Part shown: in pieces, positions 15,942-35,774 of the stretch
Layout: each line of letters starts with the position of its first letter
Numbering within the stretch: the first letter of the stretch is position 1
Source of the DNA: an uncultured Verrucomicrobiota bacterium
GTDB lineage: Bacteria > Verrucomicrobiota > Verrucomicrobiia > Palsa-1439
Reading direction: 5' to 3'
DNA: 61,314 nucleotides
NCBI GenBank assembly: GCA_964566575.1
Contig: CAZMKD010000237.1
Location: forward strand, 1-61,314
Translations under genes and position numbers: made by a program
Notes under the pieces: model-generated
What the model was told of the DNA's origin: nothing
The model's database searches: none
Seen by the model: the letters and a program-made list of their open reading frames with translations, nothing else

Positions 15942-16024
15942 CAGAAAGTCTTTACCGTGGCCTCCTCCCTTCCATCTCTCGCCTATCCGCGCCCGTCCGC
16001 CGCGTTCGACTGACGCTAAAATCG

Positions 16025-17050
16025 TCACGTTCCGCCGAGCTGTCTGCCCATCACTTCCACTAGCGGGCGCAGTTCGTTCATCAATTGTGCAAACTGCATC
16101 GGCTTGAGCTGCTGGCCACCGTCACTCAACGCCGTGGCTGGATCCGGGTGAACTTCGATGAGCAAGCCGTCCGCACCAACAGCGACGGCAGCGCGAGCGA
16201 GCGGAATAATCATATCAGCCCGACCGGCGGCGTGACTGGGATCGACAAACACCGGCAAATGAGTTTCCTTTTTCGCCACGGCGACCGCACTCAGGTCGAG
16301 CGTATTCCGGCAGGCGTGTTCGAAGGTACGGATGCCGCGTTCGCAGAGGATGACCTGGTTGTTGCCGTGGACGCAGATGTATTCGGCGGCGAGCAACCAT
16401 TCGTCCACGAGGCCGGACACGCCTCGTTTCAGCAGAATCGGCTTACCGGACGCAGCGGCGACGGCGAGGAGCGGGACGTTTTGCGCGTTGCGCGCGCCGA
16501 TCTGCAAAACGTCGGCAACCTCGGCAACCATCTCGACATCCTGGGGCGACATGACCTCGGTGACGATCGGCAATCCCGTGGCTGCGCGCGCCTCGCGGAG
16601 CAGTTCGAGGCCAGCGCGGCCCAAGCCCTGAAAGTCGTACGGTGAAGTGCGCGGCTTGAATGCGCCGCCACGAAAGAGCGTTGCGCCGCTCGCCTTCACC
16701 GCTTTCGCGGTCGCCAAGGTTTGCTCGCGGTTTTCGACGGAGCACGGCCCGGCCACGACATGAAAGGCGCTCCCGCCGATCTTGCAGCCAGCCACGTCGA
16801 AAACGGTGTCGTGCTGTTGGTATTGCCGGCTCACGAGTTTATACTTCTTTTGAACGGGCGTGACGGTCTCCACCTGCGGCAGGACGATGAGCGATTCGAG
16901 GGTGTGATGGTTGCGTTCATCGCCCACGCATGCGATGACAGTCCGCTCGACGCCCCGGATGAGCTTTGGCTCGTAGCCAAACTTCTTGACGGCCTCGCAC
17001 ACTTGCTGGATTTCCGGTTCCGGGCTGCCGATTTTCAGGACGATGATCAT
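16025..17050 (-). CDS. aroF: DAHP synthase type I-beta with N-terminal regulatory domain
   Basis: AGPCSVE, RGGAFKPRTSPYDFQG, QIGARN, LLKRG, DPSH, IEVHP. Confidence 0.93.
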   Translation of the reverse strand: MIIVLKIGSPEPEIQQVCEAVKKFGYEPKLIRGVERTVIACVGDERNHHTLESLIVLPQVETVTPVQKKYKLVSRQYQQHDTVFDVAGCKIGGSAFHVVAGPCSVENREQTLATAKAVKASGATLFRGGAFKPRTSPYDFQGLGRAGLELLREARAATGLPIVTEVMSPQDVEMVAEVADVLQIGARNAQNVPLLAVAAASGKPILLKRGVSGLVDEWLLAAEYICVHGNNQVILCERGIRTFEHACRNTLDLSAVAVAKKETHLPVFVDPSHAAGRADMIIPLARAAVAVGADGLLIEVHPDPATALSDGGQQLKPMQFAQLMNELRPLVEVMGRQLGGT

Positions 17051-17068
17051 GGCGTTCGCTCCTTCAAC

Positions 17069-17101
17069 AAAAAAACCGCCCCGCATCGCTGCGGGACGGT
17101 T
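17069..17101 (-). terminator. intrinsic attenuator terminator upstream of aroF
   Basis: AACCGTCCCGCA-GCGA-TGCGGGGCGGTT 12-bp stem (one G-U), GNRA loop, followed by a T run. Confidence 0.85.
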
Positions 17102-17120
17102 GACATGTGCGTCGTTGGCG

Positions 17121-17204
17121 TCAACACAGCGCCCGCAGCGCGCGGCTAAAGTAGAAAAACCAGAACCACGCTTGCGTGTTGCAGTGTTGACGACGGTCGT
17201 TCAT
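17121..17204 (-). CDS. aroF leader peptide, 27 aa
   Basis: MNDRRQHCNTQAWFWFFYFSRALRALC; seven consecutive aromatic codons. Confidence 0.85.
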   Translation of the reverse strand: MNDRRQHCNTQAWFWFFYFSRALRALC

Positions 17205-17244
17205 TGCGAGACGAAGACTAGCAGTTTGCGGCCGGTAAGTCAAC

Positions 17245-18585
17245 CTAGCCGCTAACAGTCGCGCCAAAGTAACCATCCCAGGCGAGGTCGATGACCTCTT
17301 TTGAGAGCCGAATGGTTTCGCGGTTGTACTTGCAGACTTCGATGGCCCGGTCGATGAGGTCGCGTGGTTCGCAGGCTTTCGGTTCTCGGTTTTCCTTGCC
17401 GTATCGTAGTTCGAGGTGCGCGAGCAGTCCCGGCTCGATCGCGAGGCCGCGTTTGCGCGCGTAAGTGGCGAAGATTTGCGCGTAGGTTTGGGGACCGGGC
17501 GGCATGACGTAGAGCCGGTAGCCCATGCGCCGCAGAAAGGCTTCATCGGCGAGGTCGGACACAGTGAGGTTAGTGGCAAAGACGATGACCTGCTCGAATG
17601 GCACTTGGACTTTCTTGCCGGTGCCGAGGGTGAGGTAATCGATGCGGCTCTCCAACGGGATGATCCACCGGTTGAGCAACTCCGCCGCGGAGCACCGCTG
17701 CCGGCCGAGGTCGTCGACGACCAACACGCCGCCGTTGGACTTGAGCTGGAACGGCGCTTCGTAAAATCGTTGCGAGGCATTGCCCGTCAGTTCCATACTA
17801 TCGATCGTGAGTTCGCCGCCCACGACGACCAACGGTGGTTTGATCTTGATCCAGCGCTTGTCGTAGTCACTGGCCGCGACTTTCACCGGCCGGTGCGTGT
17901 GGGGGTCGAACAGCCGGATGACTTGTCCGTCCACTTCGATGGCGTGCGGAATCCACAGGTCGCCTTGGATGCCATCGACTAGCGCCCGCGCCATCGCGGT
18001 CTTGCCGTTGCCGGATGGTCCACTGAGAAACAGGCTACGCCCCGAACTGGCCACGAGACCAAGAGTTTGTTTGGCCCCATCGGTGAGCACCAGCTCGTTC
18101 ATCGCGAACTCCAGAGCCGAGCGTGTGGTCGGCATGCGCCCGCGAATCTGTGCCGTGAGACGCTGCGTGTATTCATTAAGCGCGACGGGCGCCGGCCCGC
18201 AGTAGCTGCTGACCGCCATCACTCGGGCAACCTCCGTCCAGCCCCGCTCAAGCATTGCGTACCGGTGGTTGTGGGTGCCGACAACTCCTTTGATTTCGAT
18301 GAGCCGGTCGCGATTGAGCCGTTGCAGGAGTGTGTCGGTCACCATCAGGCCCAGATGCAAACGCGACGCGATTTCTGCGCTCGTGGCGGCCGGCTCGAGC
18401 GCCATCGCCTTCAGCGCGAGGTCGCCGAGCAGGATCGGAGAAAGGCCGAGCGCTTCCAATGTCTGCGAAAAGGCCGGCATGAAGGCGTCGCCGGTCTCGA
18501 CCAATAGTGTCGAGTCCGTCCCGAAGACATCGTCTTTGGGCATGTAAGTGATTGGTGCCGCAGTCGGTGTTTGGACGGCAATCAT
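17245..18585 (-). CDS. AAA+ family ATPase of unknown function with N-terminal HTH-like region
   Basis: GPSGNGKT Walker A, LVVDDLGRQ Walker B, FATN, LRR arginine finger. Confidence 0.8.
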   Translation of the reverse strand: MIAVQTPTAAPITYMPKDDVFGTDSTLLVETGDAFMPAFSQTLEALGLSPILLGDLALKAMALEPAATSAEIASRLHLGLMVTDTLLQRLNRDRLIEIKGVVGTHNHRYAMLERGWTEVARVMAVSSYCGPAPVALNEYTQRLTAQIRGRMPTTRSALEFAMNELVLTDGAKQTLGLVASSGRSLFLSGPSGNGKTAMARALVDGIQGDLWIPHAIEVDGQVIRLFDPHTHRPVKVAASDYDKRWIKIKPPLVVVGGELTIDSMELTGNASQRFYEAPFQLKSNGGVLVVDDLGRQRCSAAELLNRWIIPLESRIDYLTLGTGKKVQVPFEQVIVFATNLTVSDLADEAFLRRMGYRLYVMPPGPQTYAQIFATYARKRGLAIEPGLLAHLELRYGKENREPKACEPRDLIDRAIEVCKYNRETIRLSKEVIDLAWDGYFGATVSG

Positions 18586-18642
18586 ATGTACTTCCTAGTC
18601 TAAATTAGCGGCTTCCATGCCAAAACCGAGATTCTCTCGGAC

Positions 18643-18671
18643 TTGCAACACCCTGCCGGTTTCCCTAGACT
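18643..18671 (+). promoter_or_regulatory. leaderless promoter of LysM gene
   Basis: TTGCAA-N17-TAGACT-N6-ATG. Confidence 0.65.
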
Positions 18672-18677
18672 CGCCGC

Positions 18678-19199
18678 ATGAAACAACTGCTTCTCGCCTC
18701 GGGTGTTGCACTTTTTTGCGCGTTGGCACCGTCGGCCACCGCCCAGCAGCCTGATCCTCACCAACTCGGCATCCTCGACGAAAAGGTCAGCCGCCTCAAT
18801 GCGCAGATTGAGGACCTGCAATTCCGCCAGCAGCAGACGCAGAAAGACCTGGAGCGGATACAGACCGAGTTGCAGGAACTGCGCCGCGCCGCCGGCGGGG
18901 TCGCGTCGAGCGATCTGAAAGCGCTCGAAGATCGCATCGTCGCCGTCGATGCTGCCCGGCAAAAAGACAAACAAGCAATCATTGATCAACTCGCCAAAGA
19001 ACTGGCTTCGATCGGTTCATCCAAATCGAGCAAGACAGAGTTGCCGACGACCGGAACAAAGGAGCACATCGTTCAGAAAGGCGAAACGCTGACGACCATC
19101 GCAAAGGCCGCCGGAGTCACAGTCGCCGACCTGAAGAAAGCCAACAACCTGACCGGCGACGACATCAAAGTCGGTCAGAAGCTCGTCATTCCGCGGTAG
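18678..19199 (+). CDS. secreted coiled-coil LysM-domain protein
   Basis: Signal peptide, coiled coil, HIVQKGETLTTIAK..GVTVADLKKANNL..IKVGQKL. Confidence 0.9.
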   Translation: MKQLLLASGVALFCALAPSATAQQPDPHQLGILDEKVSRLNAQIEDLQFRQQQTQKDLERIQTELQELRRAAGGVASSDLKALEDRIVAVDAARQKDKQAIIDQLAKELASIGSSKSSKTELPTTGTKEHIVQKGETLTTIAKAAGVTVADLKKANNLTGDDIKVGQKLVIPR

Positions 19200-32743: not shown

Positions 32744-34188
32744 CGTAGTCCAAATACTCCTGCCGCCATGGTGGCTGCCTCGACCAACGGCTGTTGATAA
32801 ATCCCCAGCCCAATCATTGCAAGCATACACACATACAAGCCGGCACGCATCGGCAGACTGACCGGGATCGGCGACGCGTCTTTGGCTTCCTCAATGTAGA
32901 TCGCGCGGCCGACGTTAAAATAGTAATACAGCGACACGACCACCGCCCCTGCGCCGATGCCGGCTAGCACATAATAATGCCAATTGGTCCGCGCGGCTTC
33001 GATCACGGCGGCGAAGAGTTGGAACTTCCCGAAGAATCCGCTCAGCGGAGGAATGCCGGCCAGCGACGCCATCGCGAGGAACAATGCCACGCCCAGAATC
33101 GGCGACCGTTTCCCCAGCCCGGCAAAGCTCGCAATCTCCTCGCTCTTCGTCGCCCCGGTCACGGCGATGATCGCAAGAAACGCGCACAAGTTCGTGAACG
33201 CATACTGCACGAGGTAAAACATTACGGCTTGCACGCCGAGTTGATTCACCGCCGCCACGCCCATCAGCATGTACCCGGCATGACCGATCGAGGAATACCC
33301 GAGCAGGCGCTTGATGTTGTGCTGCGAAATCGCGCCGAGATTGCCGTACAGCAATGTCGCCGCCGACAGCACAAGGATTACCGGCATCCACACGCCACGC
33401 ACCGGCAGCAATCCGGTCATCATCACGCGCAATAACAACGCAAACCCCGCCGCCTTGCTCCCGACCGCGAGGAAGGCGGTGACCGGCGTTGGCGCGCCCT
33501 GGTAAACGTCCGGCGCCCACAGCTGGAATGGCACGCTCGCGATCTTGAAGCCGAGCCCGGTCAATACCAACAGCATCCCCAAGACAAATGGTGGCGCCGG
33601 CGTCCCGGCCTGCGTCCGCAGGATTTCTGCAAGCGTGTCAAAGTTGGTCGTGCCGGTGGTTCCGAAGATGTAGGCAATGCCGTAGACGGTGAAGCCACTG
33701 GAGAGCGCGCCAAGAATCAGATACTTCGTGCCGGCTTCCAGCGATTGGCTCTGCCGGCGCAGGAAACTCGTCAGTACGTAGAAGGTGATCGTCACGAGTT
33801 CGAGCGCCACGAACAGCAAGATGAAGTCGTTCACCGACGCGATGATCAGCATCCCGGTCGCACAGAGCAACACCAGCGCGTAGAACTCAGCGACGCCGGT
33901 CTCAAACCGTTCCGCGAATTCTGCGCCCATCAACAACACAAACGCCGTCGCCAGTAAGAACAGCCGTTTGAAGAACAACGCAAACGCATCGAGCCGGTAC
34001 ATCCCGTGAAACAGCGGCTCCGGCAGCGTCGGCATGAGAAAGCTCGCCGCCAACGCCATCGCCACCAGCCCGGCCAGCACGTAGCCGAGCTTGCGTTTGT
34101 CGCCCGACGGTCGAAACGCATCCGTCAACAGCGTCCCGATGGCGAGCAACGCCAGCAAACATTCAAGCTGTGTGGCGTAGAGGCTCAC
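32740..34188 (-). CDS. nuoN: NADH-quinone oxidoreductase subunit N
   Basis: EAGTKY, FKIASVPFQLWAPDVYQGAPTP, KRLLGYSSI. Confidence 0.95.
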
Positions 34189-35774
34189 CGATGCACCTCT
34201 AGCGCAGCTTTGTCATTCCGAGCAGGGCGAGGAATCTCTGTCGGGCCGGGAGGGTTGAGATTCCTCACTTCGTTCGGAATGACAGGTGAATAAGTAACGA
34301 TTCGTTGCACACTCGGCTTGATGATGTCCGTCAGCAATCGCGGCCAGAAACCGACCGTCAGCAGCACCGCGATCAGAAACGCATACGGGAACTTCTGCTT
34401 CAGAGTCGTCGCGTCCTTGAGCATGTTCCACTTCTCATCGAACGGACCAAAGAAACTCGTCCGCACCGCCCGCAACAAATACGTCGCCGTGACCACGATG
34501 CCCCAGATTGCACAGATCGTCGCGATGCGGAACAGCGTCGAGCCTTGTTTCCACGCGCCGATGAAGACCATGACTTCGCTGACAAAATTCGCGAACCCCG
34601 GTAACCCGCTCGACGCCATCACGGCCATCACCATGCATACGCCGATGAACGGAATCTTCCGTGCCAGCCCGCTCAGGTCCGGCACGTTGCGGTTGTGCGT
34701 CTGATGATAGAAGAAGCCGATCAACGAGAACGTCAGCGCCGCCATCACGCCGTGCGCGAACATCAACAGCACCGCGCCGGTCACGCCGATCACATTCAAC
34801 GTCGCGATCCCCAGCAGCACGTACCCCATGTGACTGACCGAGCTATAGCCGATGACAAACTTCCAATCCTTCTGCGTCAGCGCCGCCCAACCGGCGTAGA
34901 GAATATTGAAGCACGCCAGAATCGCCAGCAAGTCCACCCACTGCCGCGCCCCCTCCGGCAACAGCGGCAAGGCCAACCGGATGATGCCGTACGCGCCAAG
35001 TTTCTTCAGCACGCCGGCATGCATCATCGAGGCGGCCGTCGGCGCAGACGCGTAGCCGAGCGGCGACCACGTGTGAAACGGAAACAGCGACGCGAGGAAA
35101 CCAAACCCAAACAACAACGCCGCAAACACCCACTTCTGATTCAGACCGGACCCGCGGAGATTCTCCTTCAACTGCACCATGTCCATCGTCCGTCCGCCCG
35201 CGTAGTACATCGTCAGCAACCCGACCAACGCCAGCACTGCGCCCGCCGTCAGGTACAGCGTCAACTTCATCGTCGCATATTCCTTCGTCCGCCCGTGCTT
35301 ACCGGCGGGCAGCGACCCGTACATGCCGATGAGCAAATACATCGGGATCACCGCCATCTCGTAAAAGAAGTAAAAGAAAAACATATCCATCGCGCAAAAC
35401 GTCCCGCTGATGCCGGTCGTCAACGCGAGAAACAAAATGTAGTACTCCTTCTCCCGCTCATGGATTTCGTGCGAAACCAGCGCCCCGCAGAACGACACGA
35501 TCCCGACGAGCAACAGCAACGTCATCGAAATCCCGTCCACGCCTAACTTCAGATTGATCCCGAGCGACTTCACCCACTCGTGCGTGAACACAAACTGATA
35601 CCCAGCATCCTGCCTGTCAAACCGTGAGAAGATATACAGCGTCAACACCAACGACACACCCGTTGCGAAAAGCGCCAACGCCCGAATCGCTCCCGGCTTC
35701 TTTGCCGGCAGCAGAAATGCCAAGAACGCCGACGCCAGCGGCAGCAGGACGGCTATGGTCAGTAAGTTTCCCAT
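34185..35774 (-). CDS. nuoM: NADH-quinone oxidoreductase subunit M
   Basis: GVDGIS, FYEMAVIPMY, PFHTWSP, HAGVLKK, GLPGFANFVSE. Confidence 0.95.
   Translation of the reverse strand: MGNLLTIAVLLPLASAFLAFLLPAKKPGAIRALALFATGVSLVLTLYIFSRFDRQDAGYQFVFTHEWVKSLGINLKLGVDGISMTLLLLVGIVSFCGALVSHEIHEREKEYYILFLALTTGISGTFCAMDMFFFYFFYEMAVIPMYLLIGMYGSLPAGKHGRTKEYATMKLTLYLTAGAVLALVGLLTMYYAGGRTMDMVQLKENLRGSGLNQKWVFAALLFGFGFLASLFPFHTWSPLGYASAPTAASMMHAGVLKKLGAYGIIRLALPLLPEGARQWVDLLAILACFNILYAGWAALTQKDWKFVIGYSSVSHMGYVLLGIATLNVIGVTGAVLLMFAHGVMAALTFSLIGFFYHQTHNRNVPDLSGLARKIPFIGVCMVMAVMASSGLPGFANFVSEVMVFIGAWKQGSTLFRIATICAIWGIVVTATYLLRAVRTSFFGPFDEKWNMLKDATTLKQKFPYAFLIAVLLTVGFWPRLLTDIIKPSVQRIVTYSPVIPNEVRNLNPPGPTEIPRPARNDKAALEVHR
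34211..34284. repeat. palindromic element copy 1, inside nuoM 3' end
   Basis: TGTCATTCCGAGC..CGAGGAATCTC / GAGATTCCTC..TTCGGAATGACA. Confidence 0.85.

Follow-up and report, generated by a model that had tools for sequence, protein, structure and literature searches.

On the minus strand of a 61,314-nt stretch of DNA from an uncultured Verrucomicrobiota bacterium (contig CAZMKD010000237.1 of assembly GCA_964566575.1; the whole stretch is called the window below), the gene for DAHP synthase (3-deoxy-7-phosphoheptulonate synthase) is preceded by a short open reading frame (ORF) with a run of Trp, Phe and Tyr codons and by a hairpin followed by a run of T. A first-pass annotation, made from the letters alone, had read this region as an attenuator that responds to all three aromatic amino acids. 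The features of the locus are, in the direction of transcription:

17238..17243, minus strand: putative -35 hexamer TTGACT (by sequence), beginning 2 nt past the stop codon of an upstream 446-aa ORF
17215..17220, minus strand: putative -10 hexamer TAGTCT (by sequence), ending 10 nt before the leader ATG, with a 17-nt spacer to the -35 hexamer
17121..17204, minus strand: leader ORF of 27 codons plus TGA, from the ATG at 17204 to the TGA at 17123-17121, encoding MNDRRQHCNTQAWFWFFYFSRALRALC
17192-17184, minus strand: 5' strand of helix P1, CGUCAACAC, that is segment 1 (CGTCAACAC in DNA), in leader codons 5-7 (inverted repeat I1 and minimum free energy (MFE) structure)
17134..17176, minus strand: inner off-state hairpin P2, GCGUGGUU (17171-17164, including the first Trp codon) with AGCCGCGC (17147-17140) and CGCA (17176-17173) with UGCG (17137-17134)
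17168-17148, minus strand: control codons W13 F14 W15 F16 F17 Y18 F19, read from the sequence as TGG TTC TGG TTT TTC TAC TTT
17087..17140, minus strand: antiterminator hairpin, basal CGCUGCGGGCG (17140-17130) with CG (17098-17097) and CCCGCAGCG (17095-17087), apical GUUGAC (17125-17120) with GUCAAC (17104-17099)
17127-17119, minus strand: switch strand GUGUUGACG, that is segment 2 (GTGTTGACG in DNA), lying over the stop codon (inverted repeats I1 and I7)
17069..17101, minus strand: intrinsic terminator, stem 17101-17090 with 17085-17074, 12 bp, loop GCGA, U7 at 17075-17069, -22.5 kcal/mol
16025..17050, minus strand: DAHP synthase, type I-beta, 341 aa, with an N-terminal ferredoxin-like regulatory domain (Pfam, NCBIfam)

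The identity of the regulated gene, already named in the first-pass annotation, is borne out by profile matches to PF18152 (5.3e-17) and PF00793 (5.2e-81) and to NCBIfam model NF006421 (481.6 bits, cut-off 335). The gene takes part in making the amino acids that the leader codons would sense, and in the window it is monocistronic. Its start at 17050 agrees with that of the homologues; in the mechanical ORF list the synthase appears as a 353-aa ORF that starts 12 codons too early, at an ATG (17086-17084) inside the terminator hairpin. The synthase's Shine-Dalgarno sequence, AAGGAG at 17064-17059, lies past the U-tract and is left unpaired by the centroid structure, with a weak hairpin over it in the MFE structure. 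The word "translational" in the earlier description is therefore misplaced, and attenuation of transcription by a translating ribosome is the more fitting description.

The leader ORF carries two Trp codons, four Phe codons and a single Tyr codon in one uninterrupted run, as had been claimed, the Tyr codon being codon 18 of 27 and one before the end of the run. Shuffling the whole window 200 times and reading all six frames gave no run of seven aromatic codons, and runs of at least five at a mean of 0.095. What precedes the synthase gene is thus a short 5'-leader ORF with a codon run for the end products of the pathway. The sole other run of seven aromatic residues in the window, FFFYFFY at 35361-35381 (minus strand), was dismissed as a leader peptide; it lies inside a 529-aa ORF (34185-35774) resembling a polytopic membrane protein. 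In the mechanical ORF list the leader peptide is concealed as the C-terminal end of a 219-aa ORF (17121-17780, minus strand), a masking that the first-pass annotation had also recognized. It is reasonable to label this longer ORF spurious, because it overlaps the 446-aa ORF at 17245-18585 out of frame and because a gene of similar size (447-469 aa) stands directly upstream of the synthase in several relatives. The product of the 446-aa ORF (minus strand) has no Pfam domain; among NCBIfam models it matches an AAA-type ATPase model (CdvC) weakly, over 34 residues and far below the cut-off, and the genes of 447-469 aa that adjoin the synthase in several relatives are likewise without a recorded Pfam hit.

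Three mutually exclusive helices are present at the locus. The intrinsic terminator, recovered as I2 in an inverted-repeat search and matching the 12-bp GNRA-capped stem with a U tail described earlier, is situated between the leader ORF and the structural gene. The first two T of its T7 also close the stem, the U-tract ends 18 nt before the synthase ATG, and no other terminator-like site was detected in 16000-18700. The second helix, P1, is the pairing of segments 1 and 2 that had been proposed before; this 9-bp helix is found both in the MFE structure and as inverted repeat I1, which extends it to 12 nt with 92% complementarity (17119-17130 with 17181-17192), and it is kept in relatives. Within P1 the inner hairpin P2 sequesters the 5' strand of the antiterminator in MFE and centroid structures alike, and analogous inner hairpins are predicted in homologues. 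P1 and P2 together are predicted to form a 5' domain of -38.8 kcal/mol closed by P1, so that segment 2 would be held in an anti-antiterminator (1:2) when no ribosome is stalled. The third helix is the antiterminator. Its main part is inverted repeat I3 (17087-17095 with 17132-17140, 9 nt, 100%), in which CGCUGCGGG (17140-17132) is the exact complement of CCCGCAGCG (17095-17087), itself part of the 5' arm and loop of the terminator. With this 9-bp perfect helix, two further pairs and the six apical base pairs, the predicted antiterminator reaches -26.8 kcal/mol, versus -22.5 kcal/mol for the terminator, and by using up the terminator 5' arm and loop it shares nucleotides with its competitor.

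The switch strand GUGUUGACG has two alternative partners, the 5' strand of P1 in the off state and GUCAAC (17104-17099) in the apical antiterminator. The latter pairing, put forward in the first-pass annotation as the structure that opposes the terminator, does exist (I7, the 6-bp GUUGAC:GUCAAC), but it extends no further into the terminator than the A-U base and could not block it alone. As the whole antiterminator the 6-bp helix was therefore rejected, and it is better seen as the apical extension of a hairpin whose main competitor is the 9-bp I3 helix. Shuffles of the 211-nt leader region fold at -72.0 +/- 4.4 kcal/mol and the region itself at -85.9 kcal/mol (z = -3.15), in an MFE structure that holds both the 1:2 helix and the terminator. 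Folding of the alternatives, which had been suggested as a check, predicted all three helices.

The effect of a translating ribosome was modelled with a footprint that reaches from 15 nt behind the first A-site base to 12 nt ahead of it, and a shorter +9 variant was also run. In this model a ribosome at codons 13-16 of the window leader leaves the full antiterminator free (-26.8 kcal/mol) and a ribosome at codon 19 leaves a shortened one (-17.9 kcal/mol), whereas at the stop codon the antiterminator is excluded and only a structure of -1.2 kcal/mol is possible. The same holds for the window and 16 homologues taken together, where a ribosome on the aromatic codons allows antiterminators of -17.9 to -29.3 kcal/mol and a ribosome at the stop codon leaves at most -4.7 kcal/mol of structure, none of it antiterminator. 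In these 17 sequences, and in a wider set of 74 leaders, a ribosome on the control codons frees segment 2 in silico and one at the stop codon masks it.

On these grounds we consider it highly probable that the element in the window is a functional ribosome-mediated transcription attenuator of the trp/phe/ilv kind that controls the DAHP-synthase gene. Transcription would begin a few nt upstream of the leader ATG, leaving the leader ORF to be translated with no Shine-Dalgarno sequence ahead of it. With charged tRNA-Trp, tRNA-Phe and tRNA-Tyr in plentiful supply, the ribosome would reach the UGA at 17123-17121 and cover the region from CGCUGCGGG to GUGUUGACG; the terminator (17101-17074 with U7) would then form, and the polymerase would stop 18 nt before the synthase ATG. 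Where the leader is not translated, or the ribosome has been released, P1 and P2 would sequester the same strand, again leading to termination. A ribosome stalled within W13 F14 W15 F16 F17 Y18 F19 would instead melt P2 and set CGCUGCGGG free to pair with CCCGCAGCG once the latter is transcribed, aided by GUUGAC:GUCAAC, and with its 5' arm taken the terminator would give way to read-through. The earlier reading is supported in kind, since it too placed an aromatic-codon leader peptide and alternative pairings, which would decide on a terminator, before DAHP synthase.

Comparison with close relatives lends weight to this reading. At least 16 related Verrucomicrobiota loci were collected, some of them by exact-protein look-ups, with 14 distinct leader ORFs and synthases 79-89% identical; the homologues in the resulting 17-sequence comparisons, made up of the window and 16 related loci, are closely related and not independent. 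An ATG-initiated leader ORF of 22-29 codons is kept open in all 16, ending in UGA within GUGUUGA or the variants GGGUUGA, AUUGUUGA and GGAUUGA. The aromatic run is also kept in all 16, with a varying make-up of zero to two Trp, one to four Phe and one to three Tyr (AWFWFYF, AWYWFYF, SYYWFYF, AWFYYF, AWYFYF, GWFYFY, AWFYFCF, PFGFYF and GGYYF are examples). Phe and Tyr codons differ in their third base from one relative to another, and Phe, Tyr and Trp codons interchange. The leaders of L176 (630-759, PFGFYF) and L178 (643-762, GGYYF) are without any Trp codon, so that across the clade the sensor's set of amino acids drifts and the RNA switch persists.

The RNA strands are retained along with the codon run. 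In each of the 16 relatives CUGCGGG or CCGCGGG pairs with CCCGCAG or CCCGCGG, and the terminator stem is nearly invariant in the 17 sequences. The antiterminator is paired in 88% of cells, versus 29-41% when the partner is slid, and it has eight double-change cells; only 2 of 500 shuffles attain that many. P1 is kept as well, often with altered sequence or register: CAUCAACAC/GUGUUGAUG in L081 replaces G-C by A-U, L161 has CACAAC/GUUGUG, L178 has UCAACCC/GGGUUGA (CAC/GUG to CCC/GGG) and L176 has CAACAAU/AUUGUUG (to AAU/AUU). The region of the stop codon and both its pairing partners change together in relatives. When the P1 duplex was compared with shuffled 5' regions, p was at most 0.05 in 11 of the 17 sequences, a supportive result made weaker by the relatedness of the sequences.

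Leaders of this kind are not confined to the clade of the window. In a sample of 151 loci of the same DAHP-synthase type, each with at least 300 nt of upstream sequence, a small ORF with at least five aromatic residues in a seven-residue window was present on the upstream sense strand of 59, compared with 0 of 151 for the reverse complement, 6 of 755 for shuffles and 0 of the tested loci for a stretch inside the gene. The search upstream of orthologues that the first-pass annotation had called for has therefore found the aromatic run conserved in the 16 related loci and similar runs in part of the larger sample, so that the refuting condition named there, a lack of conserved aromatic codons, does not apply. 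Between small ORF and gene, a hairpin followed by a T-run occurs in 76 of the 83 loci scoring at least 4, and 72 of the 81 distinct leader peptides contain Trp, Phe and Tyr together. Such leaders occur in Verrucomicrobiota and in Acidobacteriota (Terriglobia, Bryobacterales and others). Practically no signal came from the small samples of Chloroflexota, Firmicutes, Cyanobacteria, Blastocatellia and Chthoniobacterales; a single Megamonas locus reached a score of 4, its small ORF being weak and a terminator absent. In 71 of the 74 leaders that have a terminator, upstream pairing engages the terminator arm when a ribosome is set on the aromatic codons; the median energy in these 74 is -25.6 kcal/mol in this position versus -3.4 at the stop codon, and against shuffled spacers the engaged state gives p of at most 0.05 in 65% of leaders (median z -2.2).

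By their terminator cores these leaders fall into four types, namely CCGYCCCGC (the clade of the window), CCCRCUC (45 distinct leaders, mostly Acidobacteriota), GCCGCGAU (19, mostly Terriglobales and other Acidobacteriota) and an Opitutia-like type (6). Peptide and terminator sequences are unrelated between types, and what they have in common is the aromatic run, the terminator and the DAHP-synthase context. A covariance model built on the type of the window gave weak matches only (E 7e-4 to 0.9) to Acidobacteriota and Opitutia-like leaders and found no second copy in the window; it did not establish that the types share an ancestor. That four or more RNA types, unrelated in their terminator and antiterminator sequences, follow the same apparent logic suggests either repeated invention or very old divergence. 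The Acidobacteriota leaders (L011-L160, for instance L025:2359-2480, L053, L096 and L017) comprise two large types with strikingly conserved terminator stems beginning GGCCCACUCG and AGCCGCGAU, and in their peptides Arg residues are scattered between the aromatic ones (FRFW, YRFW, YWWRF); no Rfam family matches either type.

The four types also bear on two other explanations of the locus. One is that the ORF encodes a functional hydrophobic micro-protein and the RNA helices are incidental; in its favour, the peptide is conserved in length class and has a hydrophobic core. However, the N-terminal half of the peptide varies freely among relatives, the conserved C-terminal LRAxC reflects no protein motif but the RNA strands CUGCGGGC and GUGUUGA, and across types the unrelated peptides share just the aromatic run and its surroundings, so that we regard a micro-protein as very unlikely. 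Alternative terminator and antiterminator folds are equally typical of RNA switches that bind a ligand, a tRNA or a protein (riboswitch, T-box or TRAP-like), in which translation of the ORF would be irrelevant. Against such a switch, which we also hold to be highly improbable, it is an ATG-initiated ORF and a class of codons, not a ligand pocket, that is conserved across types, and no Rfam family reached threshold on the window or on 26 related loci. In the individual Rfam searches nothing relevant was found on the window at E <= 10, none of 20 loci had a match at the gathering score and none of 11 had one at E <= 0.5; the leader could not be assigned to the amino-acid leader families of Rfam (Trp_leader, Phe_leader, Leu-phe_leader, Bacteroid-trp and others).

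The promoter region indicates how the leader might be expressed. A consensus promoter scan did not report the TTGACT/TAGTCT pair of the window, whose -10 hexamer matches at only three of six positions. In all 16 related loci, TTGAC(A/T/G), a 17-nt spacer and TAnnnN precede the leader ATG (TAnnnT in 15, TATATA in L002), with a gap of 7-12 nt between the -10 hexamer and the ATG. Across all lineages, 23 of the 81 distinct leaders have a strict -35/-10 pair whose end lies 6-11 nt upstream of the leader ATG, none has one so placed upstream of the synthase ATG, and a Shine-Dalgarno motif stands before the leader ATG in 11 of the 81, versus 63 before the synthase ATG. Because the promoter ends 7-12 nt before its ATG, the leader ORF is probably leaderless or nearly so, with a 5' untranslated region (UTR) of a few nt and no Shine-Dalgarno sequence; the start of transcription is placed here by promoter geometry.

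Several results weigh against the attenuator. Equilibrium folding alone does not favour read-through, and the outcome of the partition function depends on the assumptions made and is not decisive. The terminator has a probability of 0.999 in the full leader without a ribosome. With the A site at codons 10-16 it falls to 0.007-0.42 if RNA behind the ribosome may pair, and stays at 0.83 or above if the 5' RNA is masked. For codons 18-19 every assumption tried puts it at about 1.0 (0.999-1.0), and for codon 17 three of four variants do so (0.62-0.88 with the +9 footprint). Furthermore, column-wise covariation of P1 and of the terminator did not exceed that of shuffles in either MAFFT or model-fitted alignments, so that these helices are conserved, not covarying. 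Finally, loci L166/L167 and L169/L170, of close lineages with synthases 85-88% identical, have neither leader nor terminator. In the proposed mechanism read-through must therefore rest on kinetic trapping, that is, on completion of the antiterminator before the 3' arm of the terminator is transcribed. The trp attenuator of Escherichia coli likewise relies on kinetic trapping. In the model the early codons W13-F16 appear best placed for switching. As to the loci without a leader, their existence means that the leader is dispensable, and the attenuator has apparently been lost or gained within the clade.

In L166 (730-803) and L167, of the P0015 lineage, the promoter-like site found elsewhere ahead of the leader (TTGACT, a 17-nt spacer and TACATC) ends 6 nt before the GTG start of the synthase, and the structural gene may itself be leaderless there. 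In L169/L170 (P0062 lineage) a convincing -10 hexamer was not seen before the synthase. Two further loci, L171 (640-780) and L172 of the P0099 lineage, have the synthase behind a cold-shock-domain gene and keep a GUUGACG...CGUCAA hairpin with a related terminator and U-tract, without an aromatic small ORF; this hairpin may be a decayed attenuator, or merely the terminator of the csp gene.

The hairpin of L171/L172 would also agree with a simpler explanation of the window, in which the hairpin terminates the upstream 446-aa gene, the synthase has a promoter of its own and the small ORF arose by chance; indeed the hairpin of the window lies downstream of the 446-aa ORF and on the same strand. 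This explanation appears very improbable to us, since a conserved -35/-10 pair intervenes between the upstream stop codon and the leader ATG and since the 18 nt from the U-tract to the synthase ATG leave no space for a promoter. Moreover, leader and hairpin accompany the synthase despite a different upstream gene in L165, L173, L175 and L180, nearly all gaps of the leader alignment within the ORF have whole-codon lengths, as for a preserved reading frame, and the aromatic small ORFs of the larger sample number 59 as opposed to none on the opposite strand.

Given that the locus is very probably an attenuator, it remains to consider which amino acids act on it. A three-way OR gate for Trp, Phe and Tyr seems plausible at the level of the family and doubtful for the single late Tyr codon of the window leader. 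It is possible, though we think it the lesser prospect, that only limitation of Trp and/or Phe acts and that Y18 is a passenger. One Tyr codon stands here against two Trp and four Phe codons, and in the equilibrium calculations the terminator prevails in all variants with the A site at codons 18-19, and in three of four with the A site at codon 17. The aroR leader of Corynebacterium glutamicum is reported to respond to Phe limitation only, with no effect of Tyr availability (PMC11802643), and some relatives of the window locus have no Trp codon at all (F-G-F-Y-F in L176, Y-Y-F in L178). On the other hand, when Y18 occupies the A site, a +12 footprint leaves the RNA free from leader nt 65 onwards, the C that opens CGCUGCGGG, and the full antiterminator is therefore still kinetically available. 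Tyr codons also occur earlier in the run in relatives (WYWFYF, YYWFYF, WFYYF), and the joint presence of all three residue types in 72 of 81 distinct leaders extends across phyla.

We are inclined, with some reserve, to regard the window leader as belonging to a large, uncatalogued group of leaderless leader-peptide attenuators in which Trp, Phe and Tyr codons are combined and which would exert multivalent control over type I-beta DAHP synthase in Verrucomicrobiota and Acidobacteriota. Both are abundant soil phyla with few cultured members, and little is known of their gene regulation. An attenuator on the committed step of aromatic synthesis that can be recognized by its sequence would be an annotatable element, now hidden under spurious ORFs and an over-long synthase call. 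If the proposed mechanism is true, multivalent attenuation extends from the branched-chain to the aromatic pathway, initiation on 5'-end-proximal leader peptides free of Shine-Dalgarno sequences may occur outside Actinobacteria, and the leaders would provide a natural sensor module for aromatic amino-acid supply. Full-text searches returned nothing on leader peptides of Verrucomicrobia or Acidobacteria, which is no proof that they are undescribed, and a three-way aromatic attenuator at the entry step of the shikimate pathway did not turn up in the literature searched.

Enterobacteria are known to have attenuators responsive to more than one amino acid, in the ilvGMEDA (Ile/Leu/Val) and thr (Thr/Ile) operons. 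As in those operons, one leader peptide here mixes codons for end products of a shared pathway, so that a shortage of any of them could relieve termination; unlike them, it is made of codons for aromatic rather than branched-chain or Thr/Ile amino acids and belongs to another phylum. The novelty asserted in the first-pass annotation was accordingly overstated, as DAHP-synthase leader peptides are also on record, in C. glutamicum and, as a proposal, in Acholeplasma. In E. coli the DAHP synthases are under the repressors TyrR and TrpR, and leader peptides serve trp, pheA and pheST (PMC11802643). The window leader follows the same logic as E. coli trpL, pheL and pheM and has their four-segment layout, with control codons in or next to segment 1, a 2:3 antiterminator that overlaps the 3:4 terminator and a stop codon that lets a finishing ribosome mask segment 2. 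However, the E. coli leaders each respond to a single amino acid, the genes they regulate are terminal-pathway or tRNA-synthetase genes, their ORFs have a 5' UTR and a Shine-Dalgarno sequence, which the window leader is probably without, and they lack the additional long-range helix, P1, that closes the whole 5' domain here.

The nearest likeness in the regulated gene is found in C. glutamicum, where the aroR leader (Phe-Tyr-Phe) attenuates aroF by ribosome stalling (Neshat et al. 2014; Mentz et al. 2013, PMC4046766; review PMC11802643) and transcription of the aroF operon rises under Phe limitation, Tyr availability being without effect (PMC11802643). In both cases a short mixed-aromatic leader ORF precedes a DAHP-synthase gene, a likeness of functional analogy alone; C. 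glutamicum belongs to another phylum, and the aroR motif has three residues, with no Trp among them, as opposed to the seven-codon run here. The computationally proposed uORFC-13-1 motif of Acholeplasma (Brewer et al. 2021, PMC8632094) likewise places an upstream ORF (uORF) and an intrinsic terminator ahead of aroF, a 3-deoxy-7-phosphoheptulonate synthase gene, but differs from the window leader in its U-rich run coding for Phe only, in having a ribosome-binding site and in its restriction to Acholeplasma. For translation without a ribosome-binding site, the ilvB leader peptide of C. glutamicum, one of the leaderless leader peptides of Actinobacteria, offers a parallel (Morbach et al. 2000, as cited in PMC4046766); it resembles the present leaders, which mostly have no Shine-Dalgarno sequence and a promoter close to the ATG, though it comes from another phylum and the start of transcription here is deduced from promoter geometry. 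The conceptual gain is moderate because the mechanism is textbook knowledge; what is new, when set beside these systems, is the combination of amino acids, the phyla, the probable leaderlessness and the wide uncatalogued spread.

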